A stretch of 52,787 bases of DNA, taken from NCBI GenBank assembly GCA_964412165.1, contig CAYPMW010000004.1:23091-75877 (forward strand), in the 5' to 3' direction. Shown here in pieces: positions 1 through 42,392 of the stretch. Each line of letters opens with the position of its first letter. Positions within the stretch are counted from its first letter, which is position 1. The notes beneath the pieces were generated by a model that saw only the letters and a program-made list of their open reading frames with translations, did not search any database and had not been told where the DNA came from. Source of the stretch: an uncultured Gammaproteobacteria bacterium (GTDB taxonomy: Bacteria; Patescibacteriota; Microgenomatia; UBA10105). The position numbers and the translations under genes are program-made.

Positions 1-30
1 TAACTAGTTTAGCAAGTTGATCGTCTAGTG

Positions 31-73
31 TACTTAGCGAATCAGCCAGCTGGGGGATTCGCTTCGCTAAGTA
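31..73. repeat. REP-like palindromic element
   Basis: Perfect 10-bp inverted repeat TACTTAGCGA (31-40) / TCGCTAAGTA (64-73) enclosing CCAGCTGG; GATTCGCTTC also occurs in the 46.5-kb element. Confidence 0.55.
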
Positions 74-131
74 ACCATCAAAAAAAATAAAGCCCCTGTT
101 GGCTTCAAAATGAATTGTAGCACACAAGCCT

Positions 132-785
132 TCAGGTTACAAGAAGGACTGATTGGTAATATTCTTGGGCAGCTTTTGCTATTGAAAATGCTTTAGAAAG
201 TCTATCCGGATCAGCTAGTCTTTGATACATCCAAGCTAAGGGGAAGTAACCATCATTAAAGAATGCTCGAGCTTCTTCGGCAGTGCGTCCATCAGCGCCC
301 ACTATGGTTGCATAAAAGTCTTGAAAATCTATTTTATTTGTTACAGAACCGTGGTTATGTGCGAATCTACCATATGCTAAATTACCATTTGCCATAAAAG
401 TAGCACTCAAAGTGGCTTGTCCTGTTTGTTCTAGGCGGTTCATTTCAACATCAATGAGAGTATAAGAAATTCGAGTATCAACCAATAAAGGAGGATTTTG
501 TGCGAATTGTAAAATATATACAGGCCTAGATTCATCTCGCTTATCGATATAAAAAGATGACCAGCGATTGCGATACATTTTTAAGACTTCGCCAAGTCCT
601 GGTAAAGTAGCCAATAAGTTTCTGACTCCGAATTGTATATAATTTTCTATTTCGGAGTCTAAAATACCCAAATCCTTCAGTTCAATCAATGTTGATAACT
701 CGTTATACAGTTTAAGCGTCCACAAGGATCTTTCGAATTGAGGTAGAGCAGGCGATGCGACTTTAGTTTCATGAGAGCGTACCAT
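132..785 (-). CDS. hypothetical protein (orphan)
   Basis: 217-aa ORF; TATAAT 7 nt upstream of ATG; no family motif recognised. Confidence 0.75.
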   Translation of the reverse strand: MVRSHETKVASPALPQFERSLWTLKLYNELSTLIELKDLGILDSEIENYIQFGVRNLLATLPGLGEVLKMYRNRWSSFYIDKRDESRPVYILQFAQNPPLLVDTRISYTLIDVEMNRLEQTGQATLSATFMANGNLAYGRFAHNHGSVTNKIDFQDFYATIVGADGRTAEEARAFFNDGYFPLAWMYQRLADPDRLSKAFSIAKAAQEYYQSVLLVT

Positions 786-826: not shown

Positions 827-1927
827 TTAAAATTTTTGCTGAATGAACTCTTTAAACGCGATGCCGTTGGGTCGAAGCGTCCCGTCTGGATTAAACAGGC
901 TTCTTGATCCGCCAAAACCTTCGGTATCGTGACTGAACCAAACCGCAATTGGTAAATCTAGCTGCGTAATTTTTTTCATGGTATTTATTACCTGGAGAGG
1001 ATTTTCATTTTCCTGCTGTCCGACTTCATTTGTTAACGCTGGTAATCCTGTCGTTTCTTCAAGATAGTCGACTGCTTCGTTTAATGCATCGGTATCCTCG
1101 ATATACCAGTGGAAATTGACGAAGTCCGCATCAGCTTGGGCATAACCGGCGAGTAGCTCTTGGCCACGTCTGATTTGCAACTGAAGTCGTGGACTGTCGG
1201 GACTTTTTTCATAGCGAATAAATTCTTCAGGGTCGAGCGTACGTCTTAAATACTCGCGGGCTTTAAACGGTTCGCCTTGTTCGCGGTACTGTTCAGCTGT
1301 CAAATAGGCAACCAAGCTACTGACAAGCCCGCCGTTGGTGCATTTGGTGTTTTTTTCATGCGCTACTTCACAGGCGGCAGCGAGTTCGGCATGATACTCT
1401 TCGGGTGTTCCAGAATAAAACAGCGTGAGAGAATTTTCTTCGTTCTCAACGACCAGCACTTCAGGCTGGTAAGTCTCAAGTACTCTTGAAATAATTAGTT
1501 TAAAAGCAGGTATATTGGTAGGCGGGTAAGACGGCTCGCCGTTTCCGCCTCCGTTGCGGATCGTGAGAACTAGTTTTAGGCCTTCGTTTAAAGCTGCATC
1601 GCACTCACTGCATCGCCCGTTCCAGCGGTCAACGAACAGTGAAAGTGGTCGATAATAACGGACACCCAGATCTTTCGCCATTTGCATTTTTTCACGGTCG
1701 GAAAACGCTTGGGAGGGAATCATGACGCCGAAGGGATTGATTTGTGTAGGCAAACTAGGTATAACCTGAGGCGATGGTAGCGGCAGCTGAGGAAGAGTGA
1801 GATAATTTTCATTTAATTTTAACCGCGATACGTTTCCGAGAGCTGTAGAAAACGTAAATACTCCAAGATTAAGAATCATGAGTAGCATTACCACCAGGAG
1901 TGATATGTGAATCAGCCGGTGTGTCAT
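827..1927 (-). CDS. membrane-anchored clan GH-A glycoside hydrolase-like protein
   Basis: N-terminal TM helix; VVENEENS (acid/base-like), NFHWY, LTNEVG (nucleophile-like). Start moved to MTHRL (1927) because TATACT lies 6 nt upstream. Confidence 0.7.
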   Translation of the reverse strand: MTHRLIHISLLVVMLLMILNLGVFTFSTALGNVSRLKLNENYLTLPQLPLPSPQVIPSLPTQINPFGVMIPSQAFSDREKMQMAKDLGVRYYRPLSLFVDRWNGRCSECDAALNEGLKLVLTIRNGGGNGEPSYPPTNIPAFKLIISRVLETYQPEVLVVENEENSLTLFYSGTPEEYHAELAAACEVAHEKNTKCTNGGLVSSLVAYLTAEQYREQGEPFKAREYLRRTLDPEEFIRYEKSPDSPRLQLQIRRGQELLAGYAQADADFVNFHWYIEDTDALNEAVDYLEETTGLPALTNEVGQQENENPLQVINTMKKITQLDLPIAVWFSHDTEGFGGSRSLFNPDGTLRPNGIAFKEFIQQKF

Positions 1928-2036: not shown

Positions 2037-4919
2037 ATGAGACGAACATATCTGTTATTATTTTTTTTCCTAATCATCTTCGTACTTTCACTCCGCCCTA
2101 CATTTGCTCAAAAAAAATTTGGTAAAAACCAGATTGGGCCGAATATGTCTTCTGACATTCGATACGAACCGGTACGTGCGACTCTTAAAGCCAAAGGTGT
2201 AGCGTTTGCGACACTTATGGTTGATGTCGGAGCGTGCAACACGACTCCTGATTATTCGTTGTGTCTTGATGACACAATGAAAAACTGGCAAACCTGGGTG
2301 AATGAGACAGGCATTGGTGCTGCCATAATTCGTGTCTATAACGGGGGTTATGAGATTTCTTCGAGTAAAGCATTTACACTTGGCGATGCGTTTGCGCGAT
2401 ATTTTCCCGGAAGACGGGTAGTATTTGGCAATGAACCAAATAATATTGTACTTGAATGGAAGGGCGGGACACCAGCATCGTACGCAGAATCACTCAAACA
2501 GTTTGCAGACGGTGCCAAGGGACGGATAGAAGTGATTGCCGCGCCACTTGACCCATTTTTTGAAGATACGGTGAGTGGGTTTAAAGCTGAAGATTTCATC
2601 CGACAAGTATATGGTGGTGGTAATGCCCTAAAATTTATTAATGTCGATGGACTGGCGTTTAACGTCTATCATGAGGGAAGCGATATCGGCGACTGCCCGA
2701 TAGAAGTAACAGCACTTACGAGCGCTTTACGTAGAACGAAATGTTCCTGGCTTTGGCTGGTTGGTATATACGGTGGCAATGGCGTGAAGCAGAAAAAGTT
2801 CTATCTCACCGAATTTAGCCTGGCTCCTCATACAAGCGATGACGATCTAGGGTCGGTAATAAACTTTATTGACACGAATAAACAAGAGATGATTGACCGT
2901 GGTGCAGAACTCATCACACCGCTTATCCGAAACCCGTGCTTCGATCCGTCTGCTACTTCAGGATTTAAAAAATGGCCATGGCTTATGTTTTTAGACGGCA
3001 GTCCATCTCAAGCCGTCAATCCTGAAAATGGTGAAGCGGTGAGCGAGACGTGCGTAGAGGCAGACTTTGTCGAATGTCAAGAAGTTGAAGACTCCGAGCC
3101 ACAAAAAAGGGGAATATTTAACTTTCTCAAAAGTTTCTTTGGTGCGATTTATTCATCGATTCATGGACTATTTGCCCAAAAAACCGGAGAATGTACCAAT
3201 GCGTTTGACGTCATCGGTAGCGACGTTGAAGACGATCGTCGAACTGCCGCAGGTAAGCGCTTTTGCAATTATGATCCAAAAACTGTGGGCACCATCAGTT
3301 ATCCTTATAATGTGAGTGAGAACGTGACCATCTCCTTTAATCTGTTTAACGAAATATCGCGCTTATTTTCCTGGAATGTATCGACCAACGCCTGGCTACC
3401 GTTTTACAATACTTCAAAAAAATATTCACCTGGGCAGGTGCCATCAGAGAATACCGCAGTCGATTACTATGCCGGCTGCAGTGATACCGAATATTTGGAG
3501 GATTGGAATAAATACAAAAATGCTAAACCGGAAGACAAAGATAAAGAATTTTTGAAAAAAGCCCGTAAATGTGCAGGTGTGATAATAAAATCGTTGCCGT
3601 ATAAAACGAAAAATGCCAACAAAGAATACAAAAAAACCGATGATGCATTAAGAGATAAGACCCTTATGGCTATCGCCCACAATTACGTCTGTGATCATCC
3701 GAACTTTGGCGGCGTCTGCGGAGCTGTCGATCACTTCCGCGAATTTGATTATCGTCTTGGCTGGGTGACTCCGGTTGATCCGAATGCTGCCGATATAACT
3801 ACTACCGCTACTTTGTATAATTCTTCCGAACCGCCGACTAGCAAGAAACGCGAAATGTGGGTAAGTGAGCTCTTTTGTATCAACCCCAATTTCGTCACTC
3901 CGTTTGTCGGAAGAAATGAGATAAATACCGTATGTCAGGAGATCATGGGGCCAAACTATGCAAGTGGTGAGATCGCTGCCAATTCTATTATCGGTAAAGC
4001 TAATAACGGGAGAAATTTATTTAAAACTCCGGATGAAAGCCAGATATACAGTTGGTCAGTGGCCTGGGAAAAAGTACCCAATAAACCCCTTTATGATACC
4101 GAAGCTGCAGGAAGTCTGGATAGAATTTTTCCTGGTCAAGGTGATGACAATAAACATTCACCACCGCCTGACGCTAAGGATTATGATGCCGATGCCGGCT
4201 CATACATGATGCCGGGAGTCACGGGTGTAAATGAAATGGCTAAGATAGGTGCTAACCTCAAGCTTCCCAAAGACAACGGTAAAAACAGGGAAAAGTATGA
4301 ATTGCCCAAGATTGACTGTCCAGGTAATAGTGTCGGAGATGATAAAGTACTTGATGCAGTAGCTGGCATGGAGTACAACCGGTCTTTCCCGGCGTTTAAT
4401 ATTTTTAATCTTTTGGGGATATTTGGTATAGGAGACCAGAAAACTGATTCCCGGACAATGAGTCGGGATGGGACGATTGAACTGGCAATTTCCCAAAACC
4501 AGGCGGACAATGTCCTCTACGCCAGATCAATTGGTAATGCCCGACAACCTCTATCAACCGTAAAAAAGTTGAGAACGAAAGTAGGCGGGCCTGATGGTCC
4601 GACCATTGATGCGCTCGGTACACCGAGCGAATTCCGCTGTACCGGAGCTAATTGTCCAAACAAAGGCACCATTCCTTTGACCGGTGGTCCGGCAATCCTG
4701 GCCTATAATCCAGAGCCGTGTGGGTCGCTACTCCAAGAATCGCTCCGGCCGAGGAAGGCATGCAAAAAGTCGATCAGCGGCTGGGTACACGATGTCGCCA
4801 GTCAAGTTGAGGTAGATCGACTGAGTAAAAACGCCTGGGAAAGCTTGGTATCTCTCAACCCCCTCAAACGTACCAATGACAATTTAAGTACTCATGAAGT
4901 CGTATCTCCGGTCGACTGA
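2037..4919 (+). CDS. large secreted protein with N-terminal GH-A-like catalytic domain and Cys-rich C-terminal region
   Basis: Signal peptide MRRTYLLLFFFLIIFVLSLRPTFAQ; VFGNEPNN and FYLTEFS motifs; about 600 aa uncharacterised Cys-containing tail. Confidence 0.75.
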   Translation: MRRTYLLLFFFLIIFVLSLRPTFAQKKFGKNQIGPNMSSDIRYEPVRATLKAKGVAFATLMVDVGACNTTPDYSLCLDDTMKNWQTWVNETGIGAAIIRVYNGGYEISSSKAFTLGDAFARYFPGRRVVFGNEPNNIVLEWKGGTPASYAESLKQFADGAKGRIEVIAAPLDPFFEDTVSGFKAEDFIRQVYGGGNALKFINVDGLAFNVYHEGSDIGDCPIEVTALTSALRRTKCSWLWLVGIYGGNGVKQKKFYLTEFSLAPHTSDDDLGSVINFIDTNKQEMIDRGAELITPLIRNPCFDPSATSGFKKWPWLMFLDGSPSQAVNPENGEAVSETCVEADFVECQEVEDSEPQKRGIFNFLKSFFGAIYSSIHGLFAQKTGECTNAFDVIGSDVEDDRRTAAGKRFCNYDPKTVGTISYPYNVSENVTISFNLFNEISRLFSWNVSTNAWLPFYNTSKKYSPGQVPSENTAVDYYAGCSDTEYLEDWNKYKNAKPEDKDKEFLKKARKCAGVIIKSLPYKTKNANKEYKKTDDALRDKTLMAIAHNYVCDHPNFGGVCGAVDHFREFDYRLGWVTPVDPNAADITTTATLYNSSEPPTSKKREMWVSELFCINPNFVTPFVGRNEINTVCQEIMGPNYASGEIAANSIIGKANNGRNLFKTPDESQIYSWSVAWEKVPNKPLYDTEAAGSLDRIFPGQGDDNKHSPPPDAKDYDADAGSYMMPGVTGVNEMAKIGANLKLPKDNGKNREKYELPKIDCPGNSVGDDKVLDAVAGMEYNRSFPAFNIFNLLGIFGIGDQKTDSRTMSRDGTIELAISQNQADNVLYARSIGNARQPLSTVKKLRTKVGGPDGPTIDALGTPSEFRCTGANCPNKGTIPLTGGPAILAYNPEPCGSLLQESLRPRKACKKSISGWVHDVASQVEVDRLSKNAWESLVSLNPLKRTNDNLSTHEVVSPVD

Positions 4920-5036
4920 CCGGTATTAGATCCCGGCTACGACAACTGCTTCTTTCGTTATTCCCTCAATCTAAAGATAAAATCTCGCGTACTACTTTGG
5001 AGTCTTGCAGTTTTGGTAAATGGTGCGCTATGATGG

Positions 5037-6326
5037 ATGAGGAGAAAGATGCATGTTATGGAACCATTTTTAACCCGACGCTCAACGATTACCATTTTCA
5101 TCATTTTATTTCTCACTTTTATTCTGGCACTTTCTGTCTCGCTCGTTGAACGGGAAAGGCAAGATATTCGCCAACGGGCTCAGGTTGAGGATGTGACGCT
5201 TGAACTGACACCGGGGACTGTCGAAGTTCCGACAGATACCCCTTTTTCAATGAATGTGCTCTTGAACTCTCCGACTCAGGGAGTATCCCAAGTAGATCTA
5301 GTGGTAAATTACGATCCGACACTTGTCCATGCAGTAAACATTACTCCGGGAGTATTTTTGCCTACGATGTCGGGCAGTTCTATCACCGAGACAGATATTG
5401 GTACCATCTTGGCCACGTTTACAACTGATGGAGTGACTCAAACCGCGGACTATGAAACGCTCGCAACTATCACGTTTGAGTCGCTCGATACTCCTGGAAA
5501 AAATGAGGTTACTATAAATACTTCCTCAACTGTGACCGTCACTTCGGGAGTAGTGACGCCACAGGTTTCAAATGCTACTGTAGTGGTGATGAGTGTCCCT
5601 AGTCCATCAGCCAGTCCTTCTGAGGAACCAACTCCTCCCCCCACTCCTACACCATCACCCACACCATCACCTTCACCCACCCCCGATCCTACTCCTACAC
5701 CATCTTCTACACCTTCCGCAACTCCGGGCACAGGAGGTAGTGATCCAACTGCGTCGCCGTTTGTGGCGTGTACTAAATCCGCGCCTTCATCTCCTACCAA
5801 TTTGCGCGCGGTGGCCACTGGTGTGAAAACCGTGAATTTGTCATGGTCGGGAACTGCCAATACGACGCATTACGGTATCGTGTATGGTCAAGAATCAGGT
5901 AGATACACGTGGGGAGCTGCTGATGTGGGAAATGTGACCTCATTTACGGTCGGCAATTTATTACCCAGTACCCGCTATTATTTTGCGGTGTTTGCCGTCA
6001 ATGATTGTGCCTCAAGCGGAGTCTCAGACGAAGCTAACGCCAAGACCAATGCCTCATCTGGACAAACGGCCACACCCCTTCCTGATCCATCTCCCACAGG
6101 TGGTCGGGGAGTATTTGTGCCACTAGATCCGGATGAAGAACCTATCCCATTTCTGACAGGAAGAAGAAACAGACTGCTTGCAAGTCCCTTACCGCAAGTA
6201 TCAGTGCCTCCACGGGAAACAGGAGAGAAGGGCGGTACGAATGTGTCACCTCTCGGGATTTTCTTCCTCTTTTTGGCGACTCTGTTTTTAGGCATCTTTC
6301 TCTATAGAATTCATCGCGGGGACTAG
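5037..6326 (+). CDS. surface protein: TM - cohesin-like - Pro/Thr linker - fibronectin type III - C-terminal TM
   Basis: VDLVVNYDPTLV cohesin-like strand pattern; PTPTPSP linker; APSSPTNLRA...LSW...LLPSTRYYFAVFAVN Fn3 signature. True start may be 5058. Confidence 0.8.
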   Translation: MRRKMHVMEPFLTRRSTITIFIILFLTFILALSVSLVERERQDIRQRAQVEDVTLELTPGTVEVPTDTPFSMNVLLNSPTQGVSQVDLVVNYDPTLVHAVNITPGVFLPTMSGSSITETDIGTILATFTTDGVTQTADYETLATITFESLDTPGKNEVTINTSSTVTVTSGVVTPQVSNATVVVMSVPSPSASPSEEPTPPPTPTPSPTPSPSPTPDPTPTPSSTPSATPGTGGSDPTASPFVACTKSAPSSPTNLRAVATGVKTVNLSWSGTANTTHYGIVYGQESGRYTWGAADVGNVTSFTVGNLLPSTRYYFAVFAVNDCASSGVSDEANAKTNASSGQTATPLPDPSPTGGRGVFVPLDPDEEPIPFLTGRRNRLLASPLPQVSVPPRETGEKGGTNVSPLGIFFLFLATLFLGIFLYRIHRGD

Positions 6327-37002: not shown

Positions 37003-37215
37003 ATGAGTTTGGTTTGGGATTATTCCAAAACAGTATTGGAAAAGAGTGAAAAAGGGAAAATATTGCTTCTGGAACGCGCGATAAATTATGGTCCCAATCA
37101 GGGTCAAAAATTGAAACGTCAGAATATTATCAAATATTGGGATAGACTCAAGTTGTTCCCGAAAAAAAAGAGATTGTTGGAGCTTCTGATATGGGGAAAA
37201 CAGTCCTCAATTTAA
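37003..37215 (+). CDS. small putative antitoxin partner of the AbiEii-like toxin
   Basis: WDY...LLERAINYG...IKYW; overlaps the downstream nucleotidyltransferase. Confidence 0.7.
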   Translation: MSLVWDYSKTVLEKSEKGKILLLERAINYGPNQGQKLKRQNIIKYWDRLKLFPKKKRLLELLIWGKQSSI

Positions 37216-37847
37216 AACAAACCTCCATTCTGGATGCGTTCACCGAAGAACCATTTTTGACTGGTAATTTTTATTTTACCGGCGGAACCGCATTAAGCGA
37301 AGTATATCTTCAACACAGAGAAAGCATCGACTTGGATTTTTTCAGTAGGTTGCAGTTTGATCCGCAAAAATTGTTAAATATTATTGAATCCTGGTCGCGT
37401 AAATATAAATTTATCATCAAGCAGCAATTTGTTGATCCCACTTATATTTATATCTGCAAATTTGCCGATAATGAGGAATTGAAAATTGATTTCGCAACGT
37501 ATCCTTACAAACAACTCTCAGAGAGAGTGGTATACCATGAGCGTCTACAAGTCGATAGTTTATTAGATATTAGTGTAAATAAACTTATTACTTTGACACA
37601 GCGGGCTGAAGCAAAAGATTATGTAGATCTTTTCTATATTTTACAGCATTTTTCTTTTTGGGAGTTAAAAGAAGGAGTAAGAAGTAAGTTTAACGTCGAG
37701 CTAGAACCATTTACGGCAGCTGCTGATTTTGCGGCGGTAGAGACTATTGAATTTTTGCCTAAAATGTTGACAACTTTAACTATTCAGGAATTGAAATCGT
37801 TTTTCTTAACTCTTGCAAAAAAACTGGGTGGAAACTTTATTGAATAA
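37191..37847 (+). CDS. AbiEii/AbiGii-family nucleotidyltransferase toxin
   Basis: FYFTGGTAL...HRESIDLDFF; NKL...R.EAKDYVDL. Confidence 0.9.
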   Translation: MGKTVLNLKQTSILDAFTEEPFLTGNFYFTGGTALSEVYLQHRESIDLDFFSRLQFDPQKLLNIIESWSRKYKFIIKQQFVDPTYIYICKFADNEELKIDFATYPYKQLSERVVYHERLQVDSLLDISVNKLITLTQRAEAKDYVDLFYILQHFSFWELKEGVRSKFNVELEPFTAAADFAAVETIEFLPKMLTTLTIQELKSFFLTLAKKLGGNFIE

Positions 37848-37972: not shown

Positions 37973-38010
37973 CAGGGACGATAGGAATCGGACCTCTACT
38001 GGAAGTTTTG
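37973..38010 (-). pseudogene. 3' half of a decayed tRNA-Trp-like gene
   Basis: CAAA-ACTTC-CAGT-AGAGG-TCCGATT-CCTAT-CGTCCCT-G; pairs with the 5' half at 38171-38201. Confidence 0.7.
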
Positions 38011-38024
38011 TTCCAGAATTCTTG

Positions 38025-38095
38025 CAGGTCCGCCCCGATTCGAACGGGGAATAGAGGTTTTGGAGACCTCTGTGATACCGTTTCACCACGGACCT
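38025..38095 (-). tRNA. trnW: tRNA-Trp (CCA)
   Basis: Acceptor AGGTCCG/CGGACCT, anticodon arm GAGGT-CTCCAAA-ACCTC, T-arm CCCCG-TTCGAAT-CGGGG, G73; CCA end not encoded. Confidence 0.95.
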
Positions 38096-38170
38096 AACAG
38101 AAAAGACCTGCTAGAACATCGGGATCCCGTACTGTAAGCTATTTCTCCGAACAACAACAGTAATGGGAGT

Positions 38171-38201
38171 GACTTCTGGTCTACCGTTAACTTACGGCCC
38201 T
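38171..38201 (-). pseudogene. 5' half of a decayed tRNA-Trp-like gene
   Basis: AGGGCCG-TA-AGTT-AACGGTA-GACC-A-GAAGT-C; starts 6 nt after TATAAT (38208-38213). Confidence 0.7.
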
Positions 38202-38320
38202 TTGGCTATTATATCAAATTCGCAGGCTGAATTTAGGAAAAAGATTTACATAGTTTCCCCTTGCTGAAACTGCATCAACCATTTATAATCCTTCTGATTT
38301 TTGAGCTAATTTTTAAAGGA

Positions 38321-39592
38321 ATGTCGAGAGAACGAGAACAATCACAATCCAATTATAAACCTGATATGCTTGTGCATTCATCTGCTTTAGGTTCTTCTGC
38401 ATCAAACAACCGAACCCATGTACCAACATTTGCCAAAGGCGCGAACAATGAAAGTGGAATTATAGGCGATTTTCATTCCCAATTTCTGGCATATTTAGTA
38501 GACGAACCGCTTATAAAGCCCGCGGCTAGAAGTTTGGCGGAGAGCGCTCCCGCTACAATACATCATGACACATATTATCGACAGCTGCCTATAGCATGGA
38601 CGCATGAACCACTTGATTTAGCTGTGAGGTCATGGCTATGGGAACAAAGAATTCGGGTTGATGGGGTAGCGCAGAAAGACGAGCGCGATATGTCTGATCT
38701 TTTCGGGATCTATACAGGTGATACGAGCGGCATCCCGGAGATGTTATTTATGGGGGAAGATTCATTTTTGGGTAAAGCCATTGCGGTGGGGAAACGGGCG
38801 CAGCACAAACTGGAAAAATTAATGCAGAAAAAAGTGAAATTTTCGCCTTCCACGAGGATGCTTTTTGAGGCGCAGGCTATGGTAGGAGAGGCAGCTAAAG
38901 GAAGGCTTGTTACCGCTTTTACCCATTATGCCCTGAAGCTTGCCGCTAAGGCCCATGGGTATTATGACAGCGTGCCGCTTTTGGATTTGGTGCAGGAGGC
39001 GAACAAAGCCTTGCTTCGCGCCGCAGACAGATATGATTACCAGCGAAGTATTAGGTTCTGGACGTATGCGACAGCGTGGATAAAGCGGGATCTTGGGATT
39101 TACATAGCCCGGAATGCAGCATCAATTGGGGAACCGCTCGATACTCACACGCTCATCAATTGGCTTCTCCGGCTTGAAGACCAGCTGCAAAAGGATAGCA
39201 TACCTCCGTCAGACGTAGAGCTAAGCGAAATAATGGGTATTTCCATACAGCGAGTACAAAAGTACCGGGAAATTGCGCATCGAAGGCCAGTATCTCTTGA
39301 CCGCCTGGCAGGTGAATCGGGAAAAGATACCGAATGGGAAGTCACACCTATCGACTCAATGGATATTGAGGATCTGGTCATTGAGCGAGAAACGGCAAGG
39401 GAGGCAGTCGAAGCGGTGAATGGATTGCCATTCAAACACCGCCGAGTGATTTATATGTATACAGGATTTGACGGTGAAACTATAGAGCTTGAAGAAATTG
39501 GTGTTAGGTTTGGATTTAGTAGGCAGCGTGCCCATGAGTTAAAAACAAACGGACTGAAAAAAGTCAGAAATACGTTATTAAAAAATGTCTAA
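38321..39592 (+). CDS. divergent sigma-70 family (RpoD-like) sigma factor
   Basis: DLVQEANKALLRAADRYDY...RFWTYATAWIK (region 2), PSDVELSEIMG...PVSLD (region 3), LEEIGVRFGFSRQRAHEL (region 4). Confidence 0.85.
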   Translation: MSREREQSQSNYKPDMLVHSSALGSSASNNRTHVPTFAKGANNESGIIGDFHSQFLAYLVDEPLIKPAARSLAESAPATIHHDTYYRQLPIAWTHEPLDLAVRSWLWEQRIRVDGVAQKDERDMSDLFGIYTGDTSGIPEMLFMGEDSFLGKAIAVGKRAQHKLEKLMQKKVKFSPSTRMLFEAQAMVGEAAKGRLVTAFTHYALKLAAKAHGYYDSVPLLDLVQEANKALLRAADRYDYQRSIRFWTYATAWIKRDLGIYIARNAASIGEPLDTHTLINWLLRLEDQLQKDSIPPSDVELSEIMGISIQRVQKYREIAHRRPVSLDRLAGESGKDTEWEVTPIDSMDIEDLVIERETAREAVEAVNGLPFKHRRVIYMYTGFDGETIELEEIGVRFGFSRQRAHELKTNGLKKVRNTLLKNV

Positions 39593-41087: not shown

Positions 41088-41594
41088 TCAGGGGCGAAGA
41101 ATTTGTAGAGACGTGATAATCTCGGAGAATATATTTCCATATCCAAACAAAGCCACTTCATGCTTGATAGTGGGATGGGTGAATATCACCACATCAAGCG
41201 GAACATTATTTTCAGCCGAGGCGTCATGGTAAATGGTGGCTTTTTGACCGGCGATCGTAGCCTCATCTATTTTCTCAGGTGGCAACGGTGGCTTGGGAAA
41301 ATCAAAGCCGCAGATAAGACTGATCTCATCTTTGGTTTGTGAGTTCGTCAGTTGTGCCGAATCGCTTGACTGGCGCACCTTGTACGTTGATGGATACGTT
41401 AACTCAATACCGCACTGTGGATGGGTAAGCGTATAAAGATCCGCAGAGGCTTTGGCCAGCGGAGACGGCAATAGAGTTGGCAACGGGCTGGCGGTTAAAG
41501 TTTGCGCATTAAAATTCGTGCCAATCCGGATGCCGATCAAAAGGAATACCACGCTTGCAAGAATGACTGTGATGAAAGCAGTGTTGCGGTGCAT
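41088..41594 (-). CDS. exported/membrane-anchored hypothetical protein (PsbP-like)
   Basis: N-terminal TM; IELTYPSTY; ATIAGQKATIY. Confidence 0.75.
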   Translation of the reverse strand: MHRNTAFITVILASVVFLLIGIRIGTNFNAQTLTASPLPTLLPSPLAKASADLYTLTHPQCGIELTYPSTYKVRQSSDSAQLTNSQTKDEISLICGFDFPKPPLPPEKIDEATIAGQKATIYHDASAENNVPLDVVIFTHPTIKHEVALFGYGNIFSEIITSLQILRP

Positions 41595-41618: not shown

Positions 41619-41984
41619 TTAACTACTATTTAATTTTATCCTTAAACCACTAAGCATTAAGGCAATTTCCTTCATTTCTTTCATATACATCAGTTTTTTG
41701 TCGTCAGTAATTAACTTTAATGAATGTGCAAGTTCTATTATCGGTATACATTCAAAAACAGAACCGCGAGCAATAATCAGCAAATGACAGAAATCTTTTT
41801 TGGTTTCACTGCTACCTTCAGCGATATTAAGAACTATAGATACTATCGCTTGACGTAATTGATCTGTTATTCCAAAGAGGTGTTCTTTTGGCCAAGTTTG
41901 TGTTAACTGATATATTTGCTTTGAAAGTGCTAATGAACGCTGATATACAGTAAGCGACTCAAAGTTAAATTGAGCAATATTCAT
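41619..41984 (-). CDS. four helix bundle protein (23S rRNA IVS-protein family)
   Basis: FESLTVYQRS...WPKEHLFGITDQLRQA..SIVLNIAEG...ARGS..E. Confidence 0.92.
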   Translation of the reverse strand: MNIAQFNFESLTVYQRSLALSKQIYQLTQTWPKEHLFGITDQLRQAIVSIVLNIAEGSSETKKDFCHLLIIARGSVFECIPIIELAHSLKLITDDKKLMYMKEMKEIALMLSGLRIKLNSS

Positions 41985-42218: not shown

Positions 42219-42392
42219 TCAATCCAGTTTGTCCGTCTCTTTATGCTTAGTCACTTTTCGGCAGTGCTTGCACCATTTGTTGAACTCGAGTTTGTCTTTG
42301 GTATTGAGTTTATTTTTAGTTGTTAAATAATTATTGGTTTTACACACGTCACATTGTAGTGCCAGTGTCACCCGTTGTCCCTTTTTAGCCAT
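42219..42392 (-). CDS. rpmG: 50S ribosomal protein L33 (Zn-ribbon, C+ type)
   Basis: Hand translation MAKKGQRVTLALQCDVCKTNNYLTTKNKLNTKDKLEFNKWCKHCRKVTKHKETDKLD (57 aa); AAGGA SD; absent from the ORF track. Confidence 0.97.
   Translation of the reverse strand: MAKKGQRVTLALQCDVCKTNNYLTTKNKLNTKDKLEFNKWCKHCRKVTKHKETDKLD

Follow-up and report, generated by a model that had tools for sequence, protein, structure and literature searches.

The locus described here raises the question of how one tRNA gene comes to lie within another tRNA gene of the same identity, and what has become of the gene that was split. It is situated on a stretch of 52,787 nucleotides (assembly GCA_964412165.1, contig CAYPMW010000004.1, positions 23,091 to 75,877; in the following termed the window), on the minus strand of which two tRNA-Trp genes are nested. 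In agreement with a first-pass annotation made from the DNA letters alone, ARAGORN, Rfam and comparison with related loci confirm that an intact tRNA-Trp sits inside a second, decayed tRNA-Trp. The nesting is real: the locus is identical across five independent assemblies and is therefore not an assembly artefact. We favour the interpretation, with a probability of roughly 0.58, that the inserted DNA is a self-rescuing, tRNA-carrying cassette that replaces the tRNA gene of its host.

The outer gene begins at position 38201, 6 nt after a TATAAT hexamer (38213-38208), exactly as originally noted. The hexamer is part of an extended -10 promoter element, TGATATAAT (38208..38216, minus strand, read directly from the DNA), which is presumed to serve the whole nested unit and which also stands ahead of an uninterrupted outer-type gene in L021 and a stand-alone inner-type gene in L009 (L007 to L036 are labels for related loci or contigs compared with the window). 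A generic -35/-10 scan left TGATATAAT unscored and detected no promoter within the insert; an internal promoter for the inner tRNA was considered and rejected, as the linker has no consistent -10/-35 sequences. The 5' exon of the outer tRNA-Trp, AGGGCCGTAAGTTAACGGTAGACCAGAAGTCAC (nt 1-34; 38169..38201, minus strand as all parts of the locus), is homologous to the 5' part of the uninterrupted tRNA-Trp of L021. Its start had been placed correctly, while its end has to be moved from 38171 to 38169, giving an exon of 33 nt that includes C32, A33 and C34. The junction does lie in the anticodon loop, not after C32 as had been proposed but exactly between nt 34 and 35, with no loop base missing, and the DNA between the halves measures 158 nt (38168-38011) instead of 160 nt. 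From 5' to 3', this insert comprises a hairpin termed Pa with a UCCC...GGGA base and a variable top (38125..38168; a hairpin fold is found at every locus), a conserved core together with the leader strand of a stalk termed Pb (TCCCGATGTTCTAGCAGGTCT, 38104..38124, identified by the core match and by pairing with the trailer), a variable linker from leader to inner tRNA (38096..38103, from alignment of the loci), the intact inner tRNA-Trp(CCA) at its original coordinates (38025..38095), and a tail with the trailer strand of Pb that ends the insert (CAAGAATTCTGGAA, 38011..38024, degraded compared with CAAGAWACTTCTGGGR in the relatives). The outer 3' exon, CAAAACTTCCAGTAGAGGTCCGATTCCTATCGTCCCTG (nt 35-73; 37973..38010), is assigned by homology. 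Once joined, the outer anticodon loop reads CACCAAA, i.e., anticodon CCA with U33 mutated to A. Comparison of the loci shows that the insert boundaries cannot be shifted; joined exons give CUCCAAA exactly, without repeated junction bases.

The inner tRNA, called by ARAGORN, scores 58.6 bits with the Rfam tRNA model (RF00005, gathering score 29), has all stems paired, carries A1:U72 and G73 and is identical at 71/71 positions to its counterparts in L007 and L008. By these features it appears to be the functional trnW of the window genome. The outer gene shows A10 opposite C25 and A33 in place of U33 in its 5' exon, and C55, G50:A64 and U68 opposite C5 in its 3' exon; all decay marks listed previously (C5:U68, A10:C25, G50:A64, C55) are correct, and A33 has to be added to them. 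With A33, C55 and three stem mismatches, it is probably best described as a dead tRNA pseudogene.

With regard to the tRNA nature of the outer gene, its stems (acceptor 6/7, D 3/4, anticodon 5/5, T 4/5) were counted correctly as far as they had been reported before, i.e., for acceptor, anticodon and T stem. Around 370 split cloverleaves per strand of the window pass the same stem thresholds at gaps of up to 400 nt, and stem pairing alone is at chance level and uninformative. The case for nesting rests on homology and on the relatives, not on pairing. The tRNA-Trp genes fall into two clades, an O-type (L021 and the outer genes) and an I-type (the inner genes and the stand-alone genes of L009 and L029). 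In ungapped comparison with the inner tRNA, the outer halves match at 21/31 (5') and 23/38 (3') positions, which represent the best and the joint-best non-self match, respectively, in 105 kb (both strands), against shuffle maxima of 18-20 for the 5' half and 20-25 for the 3' half. Each half is no more than about 100 nt away from the inner gene, with which both share the strand, and their order is correct. Scoring of the joined halves, a check suggested at the outset, gave a mixed result: ARAGORN reports tRNA-Trp(CCA) at a threshold of 90% but not at its default, and 4/500 shuffled joined outers are called at a looser threshold of 80%. The joined outer is identical at 57/71 positions to the uninterrupted tRNA-Trp of L021, compared with 43-48/71 for I-type genes.

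Related loci were collected by four routes. A metagenome scan with a degenerate pattern for the 5' half gave L007, L008 and L009, antisense 'pseudo-proteins', i.e., spurious open reading frames called across the element, led to L010, L011-13, L014, L015, L016, L017 and L018, and members of the L33 cluster provided the syntenic loci L021-L036. The fourth route consisted of a flank screen of every tRNA call in 265 kb and of ARAGORN in intron mode after masking of the inner genes. In total, the sample comprises about 15 nested loci from about 11 lineages. Applied to the raw locus, ARAGORN in intron mode returns the inner gene alone, because the outer is dropped when it overlaps with a higher-scoring inner call; the Rfam scan keeps the best of overlapping matches and leaves out lower-scoring overlaps at nested loci. 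Masking the inner gene recovers the outers, often with a misplaced splice point and a mislabelled anticodon (Glu, Cys, Ser, Ile), and ARAGORN calls tRNAs for the outers of L007, L008, L010, L011, L029, L030 and L032. Viral contigs, scanned with two core patterns, gave zero matches.

The inference originally drawn from the window, that a replacement trnW arrived on DNA which interrupted an older trnW, and that this older gene subsequently decayed, is supported by an uninterrupted syntenic allele and by the occurrence of the same insert in better-preserved outers elsewhere, which ARAGORN recognizes as tRNA-Trp once they are spliced in silico. The uninterrupted allele that an alignment with sister genomes had been expected to reveal is present in L021-L027, which are contigs resembling Gottesmanbacteria GW2011_GWA2_47_9 (L025 is GCA_001003345.1) and carry an uninterrupted O-type tRNA-Trp, AGGGCCGTAGGTTAACGGTAGACCAGAGCTCTCCAAAAGCTCTAGTGGGGGTTCGATTCCCTCCGGCCCTG, behind the TGATATAAT promoter. 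L33 and a gene for a protein of about 176 amino acids precede trnW in the window (42222-42359 and 41097-41594, respectively) as well as in L009, L014, L015, L021, L028 and L029, and a GDSL-lipase gene lies further upstream. Judged by this gene order, the trnW locus is orthologous between the window and its relatives. At the same locus, different genomes carry an O-type gene alone, an O-type gene split by an I-type gene, an O/I chimera (L028) or an I-type gene alone. The chimera (L028:2969-3040, plus strand) combines an O-type body with an I-type 3' acceptor strand and 3' flank and has a G4:A69 mismatch; the genes downstream of it are not those of L021, which is otherwise 97-100% identical, and this marks the trnW 3' end as a breakpoint of recombination or of an island.

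The distance between the ~176-aa gene and trnW amounts to about 3 kb in the window and to a few hundred nt or less in L009, L014 and L029. The window (41619-41984, minus strand) and L030 (8208-8555, plus strand), unlike the other syntenic loci, have a gene for a '23S rRNA intervening sequence protein' (PF05635) between L33 and the gene for the ~170-200-aa protein; this shared insertion may mark L030 as the nearest relative of the window at the locus. Taxonomically, the gene content of the window, with a T4SS-pilin/VWA protein, many orphan proteins and a divergent sigma-70 factor, points to a bacterium of the candidate phyla radiation (CPR)/Patescibacteria, and L33 from a syntenic relative falls into one cluster with entries of Candidatus Gottesmanbacteria and the 'Patescibacteria group'. 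The window also corresponds to contig JACQJV010000011.1 of the metagenome-assembled genome GCA_016204895.1.

The inserts of the window, L007, L008, L010, L011 and L016 share one layout and nucleotide-identical junctions, CUC/UCCCAG...CUGGGR/CAAAAC (slashes mark the junctions), within different outer tRNAs. Their order is always Pa hairpin, conserved core, leader, inner tRNA and tail; in brief, the cassette family is defined by Pa, the GGGAUCCCGAAGUUCUA core and a leader-trailer stalk of 12-21 bp around the inner tRNA, encodes no protein and contains about 90 nt of non-tRNA sequence. In Pa, the UCCC/GGGA base is invariant, the next helix exhibits U-A/C-G exchanges and the variable top is compensated; as MAFFT/RNAalifold yielded a poor consensus for this top, individual folds were used instead. 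Every long-type cassette contains the core CGGGAYCCCGAARTTC, and the conserved core CGGGAYCCCGAARUUC occurs once in the window compared with 0.05 occurrences expected by chance. The tail follows the consensus CAAGAWACUUCUGGGR and is conserved even in L010, where an extra segment of about 115 nt lies between inner tRNA and tail and begins with a hairpin like that found after stand-alone inner-type genes (L029). Terminal inverted repeats, TCCCAG...CTGGGA, delimit the cassettes of L008 and L011, with G.U variants elsewhere.

Pairing of the leader with the 3' end of the inner tRNA, described before as a competing fold, is real and conserved. In the window, the leader/core strand and the trailer form a duplex of 18 bp (z = -5.6), and Pb stalks of 12-21 bp are predicted in nine cassettes with z-values of -3.4 to -7.8 compared with shuffles. 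For its upper part, Pb makes use of the 3' acceptor strand of the inner tRNA in Trp cassettes, and this corresponds to that competing fold; between Trp and Thr cassettes, the Pb sequence differs with compensation. RNAalifold and single-sequence folds agree that the acceptor, D and T arms of the outer tRNA stay formed while its anticodon stem is predicted to give way to a three-way junction formed with Pa and Pb. Covariation links the first position of the core YCCC to the final position of the tail (U-A in L008 and L011, C-G in L010 and L016, U.G in L007). These structures are thermodynamic predictions with few sequences available for covariation, and co-evolution of inverted repeats at the DNA level would mimic covariation of RNA base pairs.

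Inner and outer genes differ profoundly in their state of preservation. Among 17 distinct copies of inner and stand-alone genes, the chimeric L028 is the only one with any stem mismatch, and inner copies differ by compensatory changes, e.g., in the acceptor stem of L011 (AGGGGTA/TACCCCT) and the T stem of L010 (CCAGG/CCTGG). The outers, on the other hand, form a decay series in which 5/15 are intact and 10/15 are damaged, truncated or without an anticodon arm. Flawless outers occur in L007, L011 and L032 (Trp), in L030 (Thr(GGU)) and in L029 (Thr), and one mismatch is present in Thr(UGU) of L030. Two or three mismatches are found in L008, L010 and the window, the latter with A33 and C55 in addition. 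In L016 the outer halves have ceased to match or contain a hairpin, the 3' half is truncated or gone in L014, L015 and L031 Trp, the anticodon arm is replaced by a stalk in L021 Thr, and layered remnants characterize L031 Thr (three layers) and L007, where an inner-type 5' fragment precedes an intact outer. The outers differ mutually by two to six double, pair-preserving stem changes, which indicates that they diverged as working tRNAs, unlike the copies of one ancient pseudogene. That the outer is dispensable follows from the close relatives L031 and L032, which differ in the presence of the outer 3' half.

The fragment that precedes the complete nested gene of L007 (~1150-1219, minus strand) represents the 5' half of a tRNA-Trp of the inner type. 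Leaving aside 24 nt inserted in the D loop, it is identical to the inner gene at 30/30 positions, and it ends at the anticodon loop, where it is followed by TCCCGCGTACC, a sequence resembling the start of the cassette.

The cassette is not restricted to tRNA-Trp. Two genes of L030 (GCA_003545435.1), tRNA-Thr(GGU) and tRNA-Thr(UGU), are interrupted by the same cassette, in both cases between positions 35 and 36, with a UCCCAG start, Pa, a GGGAUCCCGUAGUUCUA core, the stalk and a ...GGGA end, and the inner tRNA-Thr of each cassette has the same anticodon as its outer. A short variant, consisting only of a CCYGCCYGCC/GGCRGGCRGG stalk, nests a tRNA-Thr in L029 and a tRNA-Trp in L032-35. The short-stalk motif, CCCGCCTGC...GCGGGCAGG, also occurs solo, between G19 and U20 in the D loop of dead outer 5' halves in L015 (~4130-4165, minus strand) and L021 (1085-1125, plus strand). 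Further D-loop hairpins are inserted in L031 (~598-652, plus strand), again between G19 and U20, and in the L007 fragment (~1172-1195, minus strand), two nucleotides further along after GGTA; these two are unrelated to the short-stalk motif. A Pa-like hairpin, CCCCAGTACC...GGTACGGGR, is located in the T-loop region of outer 3' remnants in L016 (~2292-2322, minus strand) and L031 (848-878, plus strand), which suggests that Pa may be an independently inserting unit. In 162 kb of non-redundant sequence, both solo hairpin motif families cluster within about 80 nt of tRNA genes.

Starting from the observed architecture, the homology of the outer exons, the empty site, the recurrence of the cassette and the presence of decayed outers around perfect inners, we infer a processing route without splicing and a mobile cassette. 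The outer gene would be the original O-type trnW of the lineage, split between C34 and C35 by a 158-nt cassette that brought Pa, the core and a Pb stalk holding a complete I-type tRNA-Trp. Members of the cassette family would insert precisely into loops of tRNA genes in CPR bacteria without duplicating the target, and cargo of the same identity would make insertion into a single-copy, essential tRNA gene survivable; mismatched insertions would be lethal, which would explain why the cargo matches the target. Transcription would start from the outer gene's own promoter, and the inner tRNA would be cut from the precursor by the ordinary enzymes of tRNA end processing, with Pb acting like a processing stalk of the rRNA type. 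The inner tRNA would then do the decoding and become the only copy of the cell, while the split outer, no longer needed, would drift, be truncated and be open to repeated invasion. Self-rescuing insertion would in this way account for the decay series, the layering, the end state with an I-type gene alone and the dead outer of the window. Movement might be brought about by a Y1/HUH transposase acting on the hairpin ends, by homing through a trans-acting nuclease or by homologous recombination after DNA uptake.

Several points weigh against this explanation. Five outers are flawless, three of which (L007, L011 and L030 Thr(GGU)) also encode the 3' CCA, a finding that fits either very recent insertion or outers that work after splicing. 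The top of Pa and the linker have diverged strongly even where the inner tRNA is identical, and the spread is thus not simply recent, with a history blurred by recombination. Much like in true introns, a conserved three-way structure would bring both ends of the insert to the anticodon stem of the outer. The cassette contains no gene for a transposase, an integrase or an endonuclease, nor does one lie close to it in the window. Moreover, the loci were found via similarity of the inner tRNA or via synteny, a procedure by which cargo-less cassettes would be missed and nesting in other tRNA identities may likewise have been missed.

Several known classes of inserted elements do not fit the cassette. 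Rfam at permissive thresholds gave no match of the insert to group I, group II, ribozyme or other families, with Intron_gpI scanned up to an E-value of 10 in the window region and up to 5 in L007, L008 and L010; two extra matches at these settings, to a Flavivirus DB element (E 4.2) and a rimP leader (E 3.3), were dismissed as chance. A group I intron was rejected because the core (P3-P9) is undetectable, because the nucleotide at -1 is C34 (Trp) or G35 (Thr) and not U, and because the last nucleotide of the insert is often A (window, L008, L011 and L030; it is G in L007, L010 and L016). A pairing like that of P1 between the exon GGUCUC and the core GGGAUC can be drawn, but competes with Pa, and the exon is invariant. 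For a group II intron the termini should read GUGYG...AY, but the insert starts with UCCCA and ends with GGGR, and Rfam found no match. Covariance models of self-cleaving ribozymes (hammerhead, twister, HDV-like and others) gave no match at permissive E-values. A bulge-helix-bulge was likewise rejected by inspection, with no staggered 3-4-3 arrangement and with junctions that lie, in the predicted folds, on opposite sides of a 3x4 internal loop or a three-way junction. Of the two hallmarks of miniature inverted-repeat transposable elements (MITEs), terminal inverted repeats are present but a target-site duplication is not. For a serine or tyrosine recombinase with a shared TC overlap, the predicted junctions differ from those observed. 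The sequence 5' of the insertion points varies, being CTC in tRNA-Trp, TGG or TTG in tRNA-Thr, GG in the D loop and TCG in the T loop.

The early suggestion of an intron-like element carrying its own tRNA is nevertheless apt, as the insert is a structured cassette with precise boundaries that recurs in tRNA-Trp and tRNA-Thr. The cassette could be a true intron of a new bacterial class, such that one transcript gives two tRNAs of the same identity, with cuts between C34 and U and between R and C35 (35/36 in tRNA-Thr), religation by ribozyme activity or by proteins, and the window as a lineage in which the redundant outer died later. We regard this main rival as unlikely overall. In its favour, boundaries are precise and invariant without target duplication, inserts in tRNA-Trp and tRNA-Thr share the termini 5'-UCCCAG...CUGGGR-3', the core Y covaries with the last insert nucleotide (U-A, C-G or U.G), the predicted fold keeps the outer arms and places the insert on the anticodon stem, an arrangement also seen in pre-tRNAs of archaea and eukaryotes, and the flawless, in part CCA-encoding outers would be its working products. 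A gene of the LigT/2',5'-RNA-ligase family (2H phosphoesterase) is found two genes upstream of the L011 nested tRNA-Trp with its intact outer (5023-5667, minus strand) and also in L012 and L013. LigT family enzymes join tRNA halves in vitro; the proximity in L011, which could be counted in favour of splicing, may be a coincidence. Rfam, on the other hand, provides no ribozyme or intron match at E-values up to 5-10, group I hallmarks are absent, and a bulge-helix-bulge cannot be drawn. We know of no tRNA splicing endonuclease in bacteria, and none was noticed among the annotated open reading frames of the 52 kb of genome covered. The damage to 10/15 outers and to no inner is hard to fit with maintained function, and L014 and L015 retain the core without tail and 3' exon. 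More specifically, a CPR tRNA intron class distinct from group I, group II and bulge-helix-bulge introns, releasing an embedded same-identity tRNA and mobile between tRNA genes, with the 5'-UCCCAG...CUGGGR-3' ends and the internal CGGGA/UCCCG junction as recognition elements, appears doubtful.

Selection might alternatively act on shape and not on decoding, if the outer halves were kept as a tRNA-like scaffold, an acceptor/T-arm 'clamp' which together with the stalk aids RNase P and 3' processing or protects the precursor. The L021 Thr outer, with its well-paired acceptor, D and T arms and a CCCG/CGGG stalk bearing the inner tRNA in place of the anticodon arm, resembles such a construction, compensatory changes keep the outer stems paired at many loci, and the promoter stands immediately before the outer 5' end at several of them. 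Yet there is no outer at all in L009 and L029 Trp and only a 5' remnant in L014 and L015, the window outer has lost U55 of the T loop and three stem pairs, and the hairpins inserted into D and T loops look like damage and not like design, which makes this an improbable explanation. It is least probable by far that no specific element exists and that the locus is debris from tandem duplication and deletion of trnW or a chance resemblance. Stem pairing at chance level, a 3'-half match (23/38) within the range of whole-window shuffle maxima, and recombination between inner and outer genes, which clearly occurs (L016, L028 and L015), would be compatible with debris or chance. The comparative data contradict this: the junctions are nucleotide-identical, the same non-tRNA cassette is found in at least ten lineages and three tRNA identities, the outer is nearer to the uninterrupted orthologue than to the inner, and the core motif is expected only 0.05 times in the window, while the agreement of five independent assemblies argues against a chimeric origin.

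In the window, the nested tRNA is flanked by a gene for an AbiEii toxin (type IV toxin-antitoxin, E 4e-16; 37191-37847, plus strand) and, on the other side, by a gene for a sigma-70-family protein of 423 amino acids (38321-39592, plus strand), the closest relatives of which are only 28-31% identical among 5.8 billion proteins; as a synteny anchor in a contig scan, the sigma factor gave one unrelated Bacteroidota locus only. An integrase-type island was rejected, with no attL/attR direct repeats at the junctions and no integrase among these neighbours. No gene for a GIY-YIG protein, a Y1 transposase or LigT is present in the window. In L007, the gene of an IS200-like Y1 (HUH) transposase (PF01797, E 1.2e-10; 1-591, minus strand) is separated from the nested tRNA-Trp by about 370 nt on its downstream side, behind a GIY-YIG gene, and may be a candidate for a trans-acting enzyme of the hairpin elements, at this one locus only. 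A small gene for a GIY-YIG nuclease, about 73% identical between loci, is located directly downstream of trnW in L007 (610-864), L014 (108-359) and L017 (~2790-2999), on the minus strand in each case (Pfam E 1.7e-17 and 1.9e-12). As homing endonuclease of the cassette itself it is a weakened candidate, given that it is absent from the window and follows an uninterrupted tRNA-Trp in L017; the latter indicates an association of the GIY-YIG gene with the trnW 3' end rather than with the cassette. A conserved hairpin is located between tRNA-Trp and the GIY-YIG gene, and a partial copy of a tRNA 3' end (GYCTGCAT) precedes the start codon of the latter in L014 and L017.

Whatever the mechanism, CPR genomes contain a hidden layer of tRNA genes, as outer genes, split genes and entire decay series go unannotated. 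An insertion may take over an essential single-copy gene by bringing a working copy, after which the cell depends on the invader; self-rescuing insertion would thus amount to gene replacement by a selfish, protein-less cassette of about 160 nt. Should splicing occur in any of the intact outers, the insert would be a bacterial tRNA intron of a new type, with a bearing on the origin of tRNA introns, split tRNAs and nested RNA genes. Cassette ends, stalk and solo hairpins constitute a sequence family that targets loops of tRNA genes and points to an enzyme recognizing tRNA-gene structure as DNA or RNA. In addition, a tRNA mounted on a stalk offers a natural design for expressing one structured RNA within another.

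Literature full-text searches for nested and intron-encoded tRNAs, for tRNA introns in CPR/Patescibacteria and for interrupted tRNAs in Microgenomates returned no bacterial tRNA nested in the anticodon loop of another; we could not find this gene layout described. A published survey of bacterial tRNA introns, which was restricted to group I introns detected by models, reported that these are frequent in metagenomic assemblies of unnamed phyla (10.1101/2020.01.27.920355). Like bacterial group I tRNA introns, the cassette is precisely inserted in the anticodon loop without target duplication, and the Trp insertion site between nt 34 and 35 is the loop position of the classical group I intron of tRNA-Leu ('position 3'). 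Unlike these introns, it encloses a complete tRNA of the same identity, comprises only about 90 nt of non-tRNA sequence without a detectable core, has C or G at the 5' junction and resides in host exons most of which are decaying. In archaea, an intron of tRNA-Trp encodes a box C/D guide RNA, multi-intron, split and permuted tRNA genes occur, introns are spliced at bulge-helix-bulge motifs, and intron mobility has been proposed (PMC4090602, PMC4390854). Both cases have in common that an insert in the tRNA-Trp anticodon loop houses a functional small RNA and that D- and T-loop insertions as well as layered or fragmented genes are found. The cassettes described here differ in their bacterial hosts (sigma-70 and L33 context), in the site (34/35 or 35/36 and not 37/38), in a passenger tRNA that matches the identity of its host gene, in host exons that are mostly dead and in that no bulge-helix-bulge motif was found.

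Genomic islands and prophages that use tRNA genes as integration sites bring along a tRNA segment by which the gene is restored. Here, too, incoming DNA supplies tRNA sequence and makes a hit in an essential gene harmless, and the 3' end of trnW in L028 resembles an ordinary case of the island type. Unlike islands, the cassette is only about 160 nt in length, has neither integrase nor attL/attR, and supplies a whole separate tRNA while the old gene is left split. In size, lack of proteins, construction from hairpins and short inverted-repeat termini, it resembles REP/RAYT elements, IS200/IS605-derived PATEs and MITEs; insertion without target duplication is shared with IS200/IS605, and solo hairpins of the same two motif families occur in D and T loops. 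It differs from such elements in the lack of a shared target tetranucleotide, in a transposase gene near one locus only and in the confinement of insertions to tRNA loops, and to our knowledge a tRNA cargo matched to the target is not described for REP/RAYT, PATE or MITE elements. A further parallel is offered by rRNA operons. The enclosed RNA is a tRNA here and its host another tRNA; with this difference, the predicted Pb duplex of 12-21 bp would enclose a stable RNA as do the stalks around 16S and 23S rRNA, and, as with rRNA intervening sequences that are removed without religation, the host RNA would end in two pieces.

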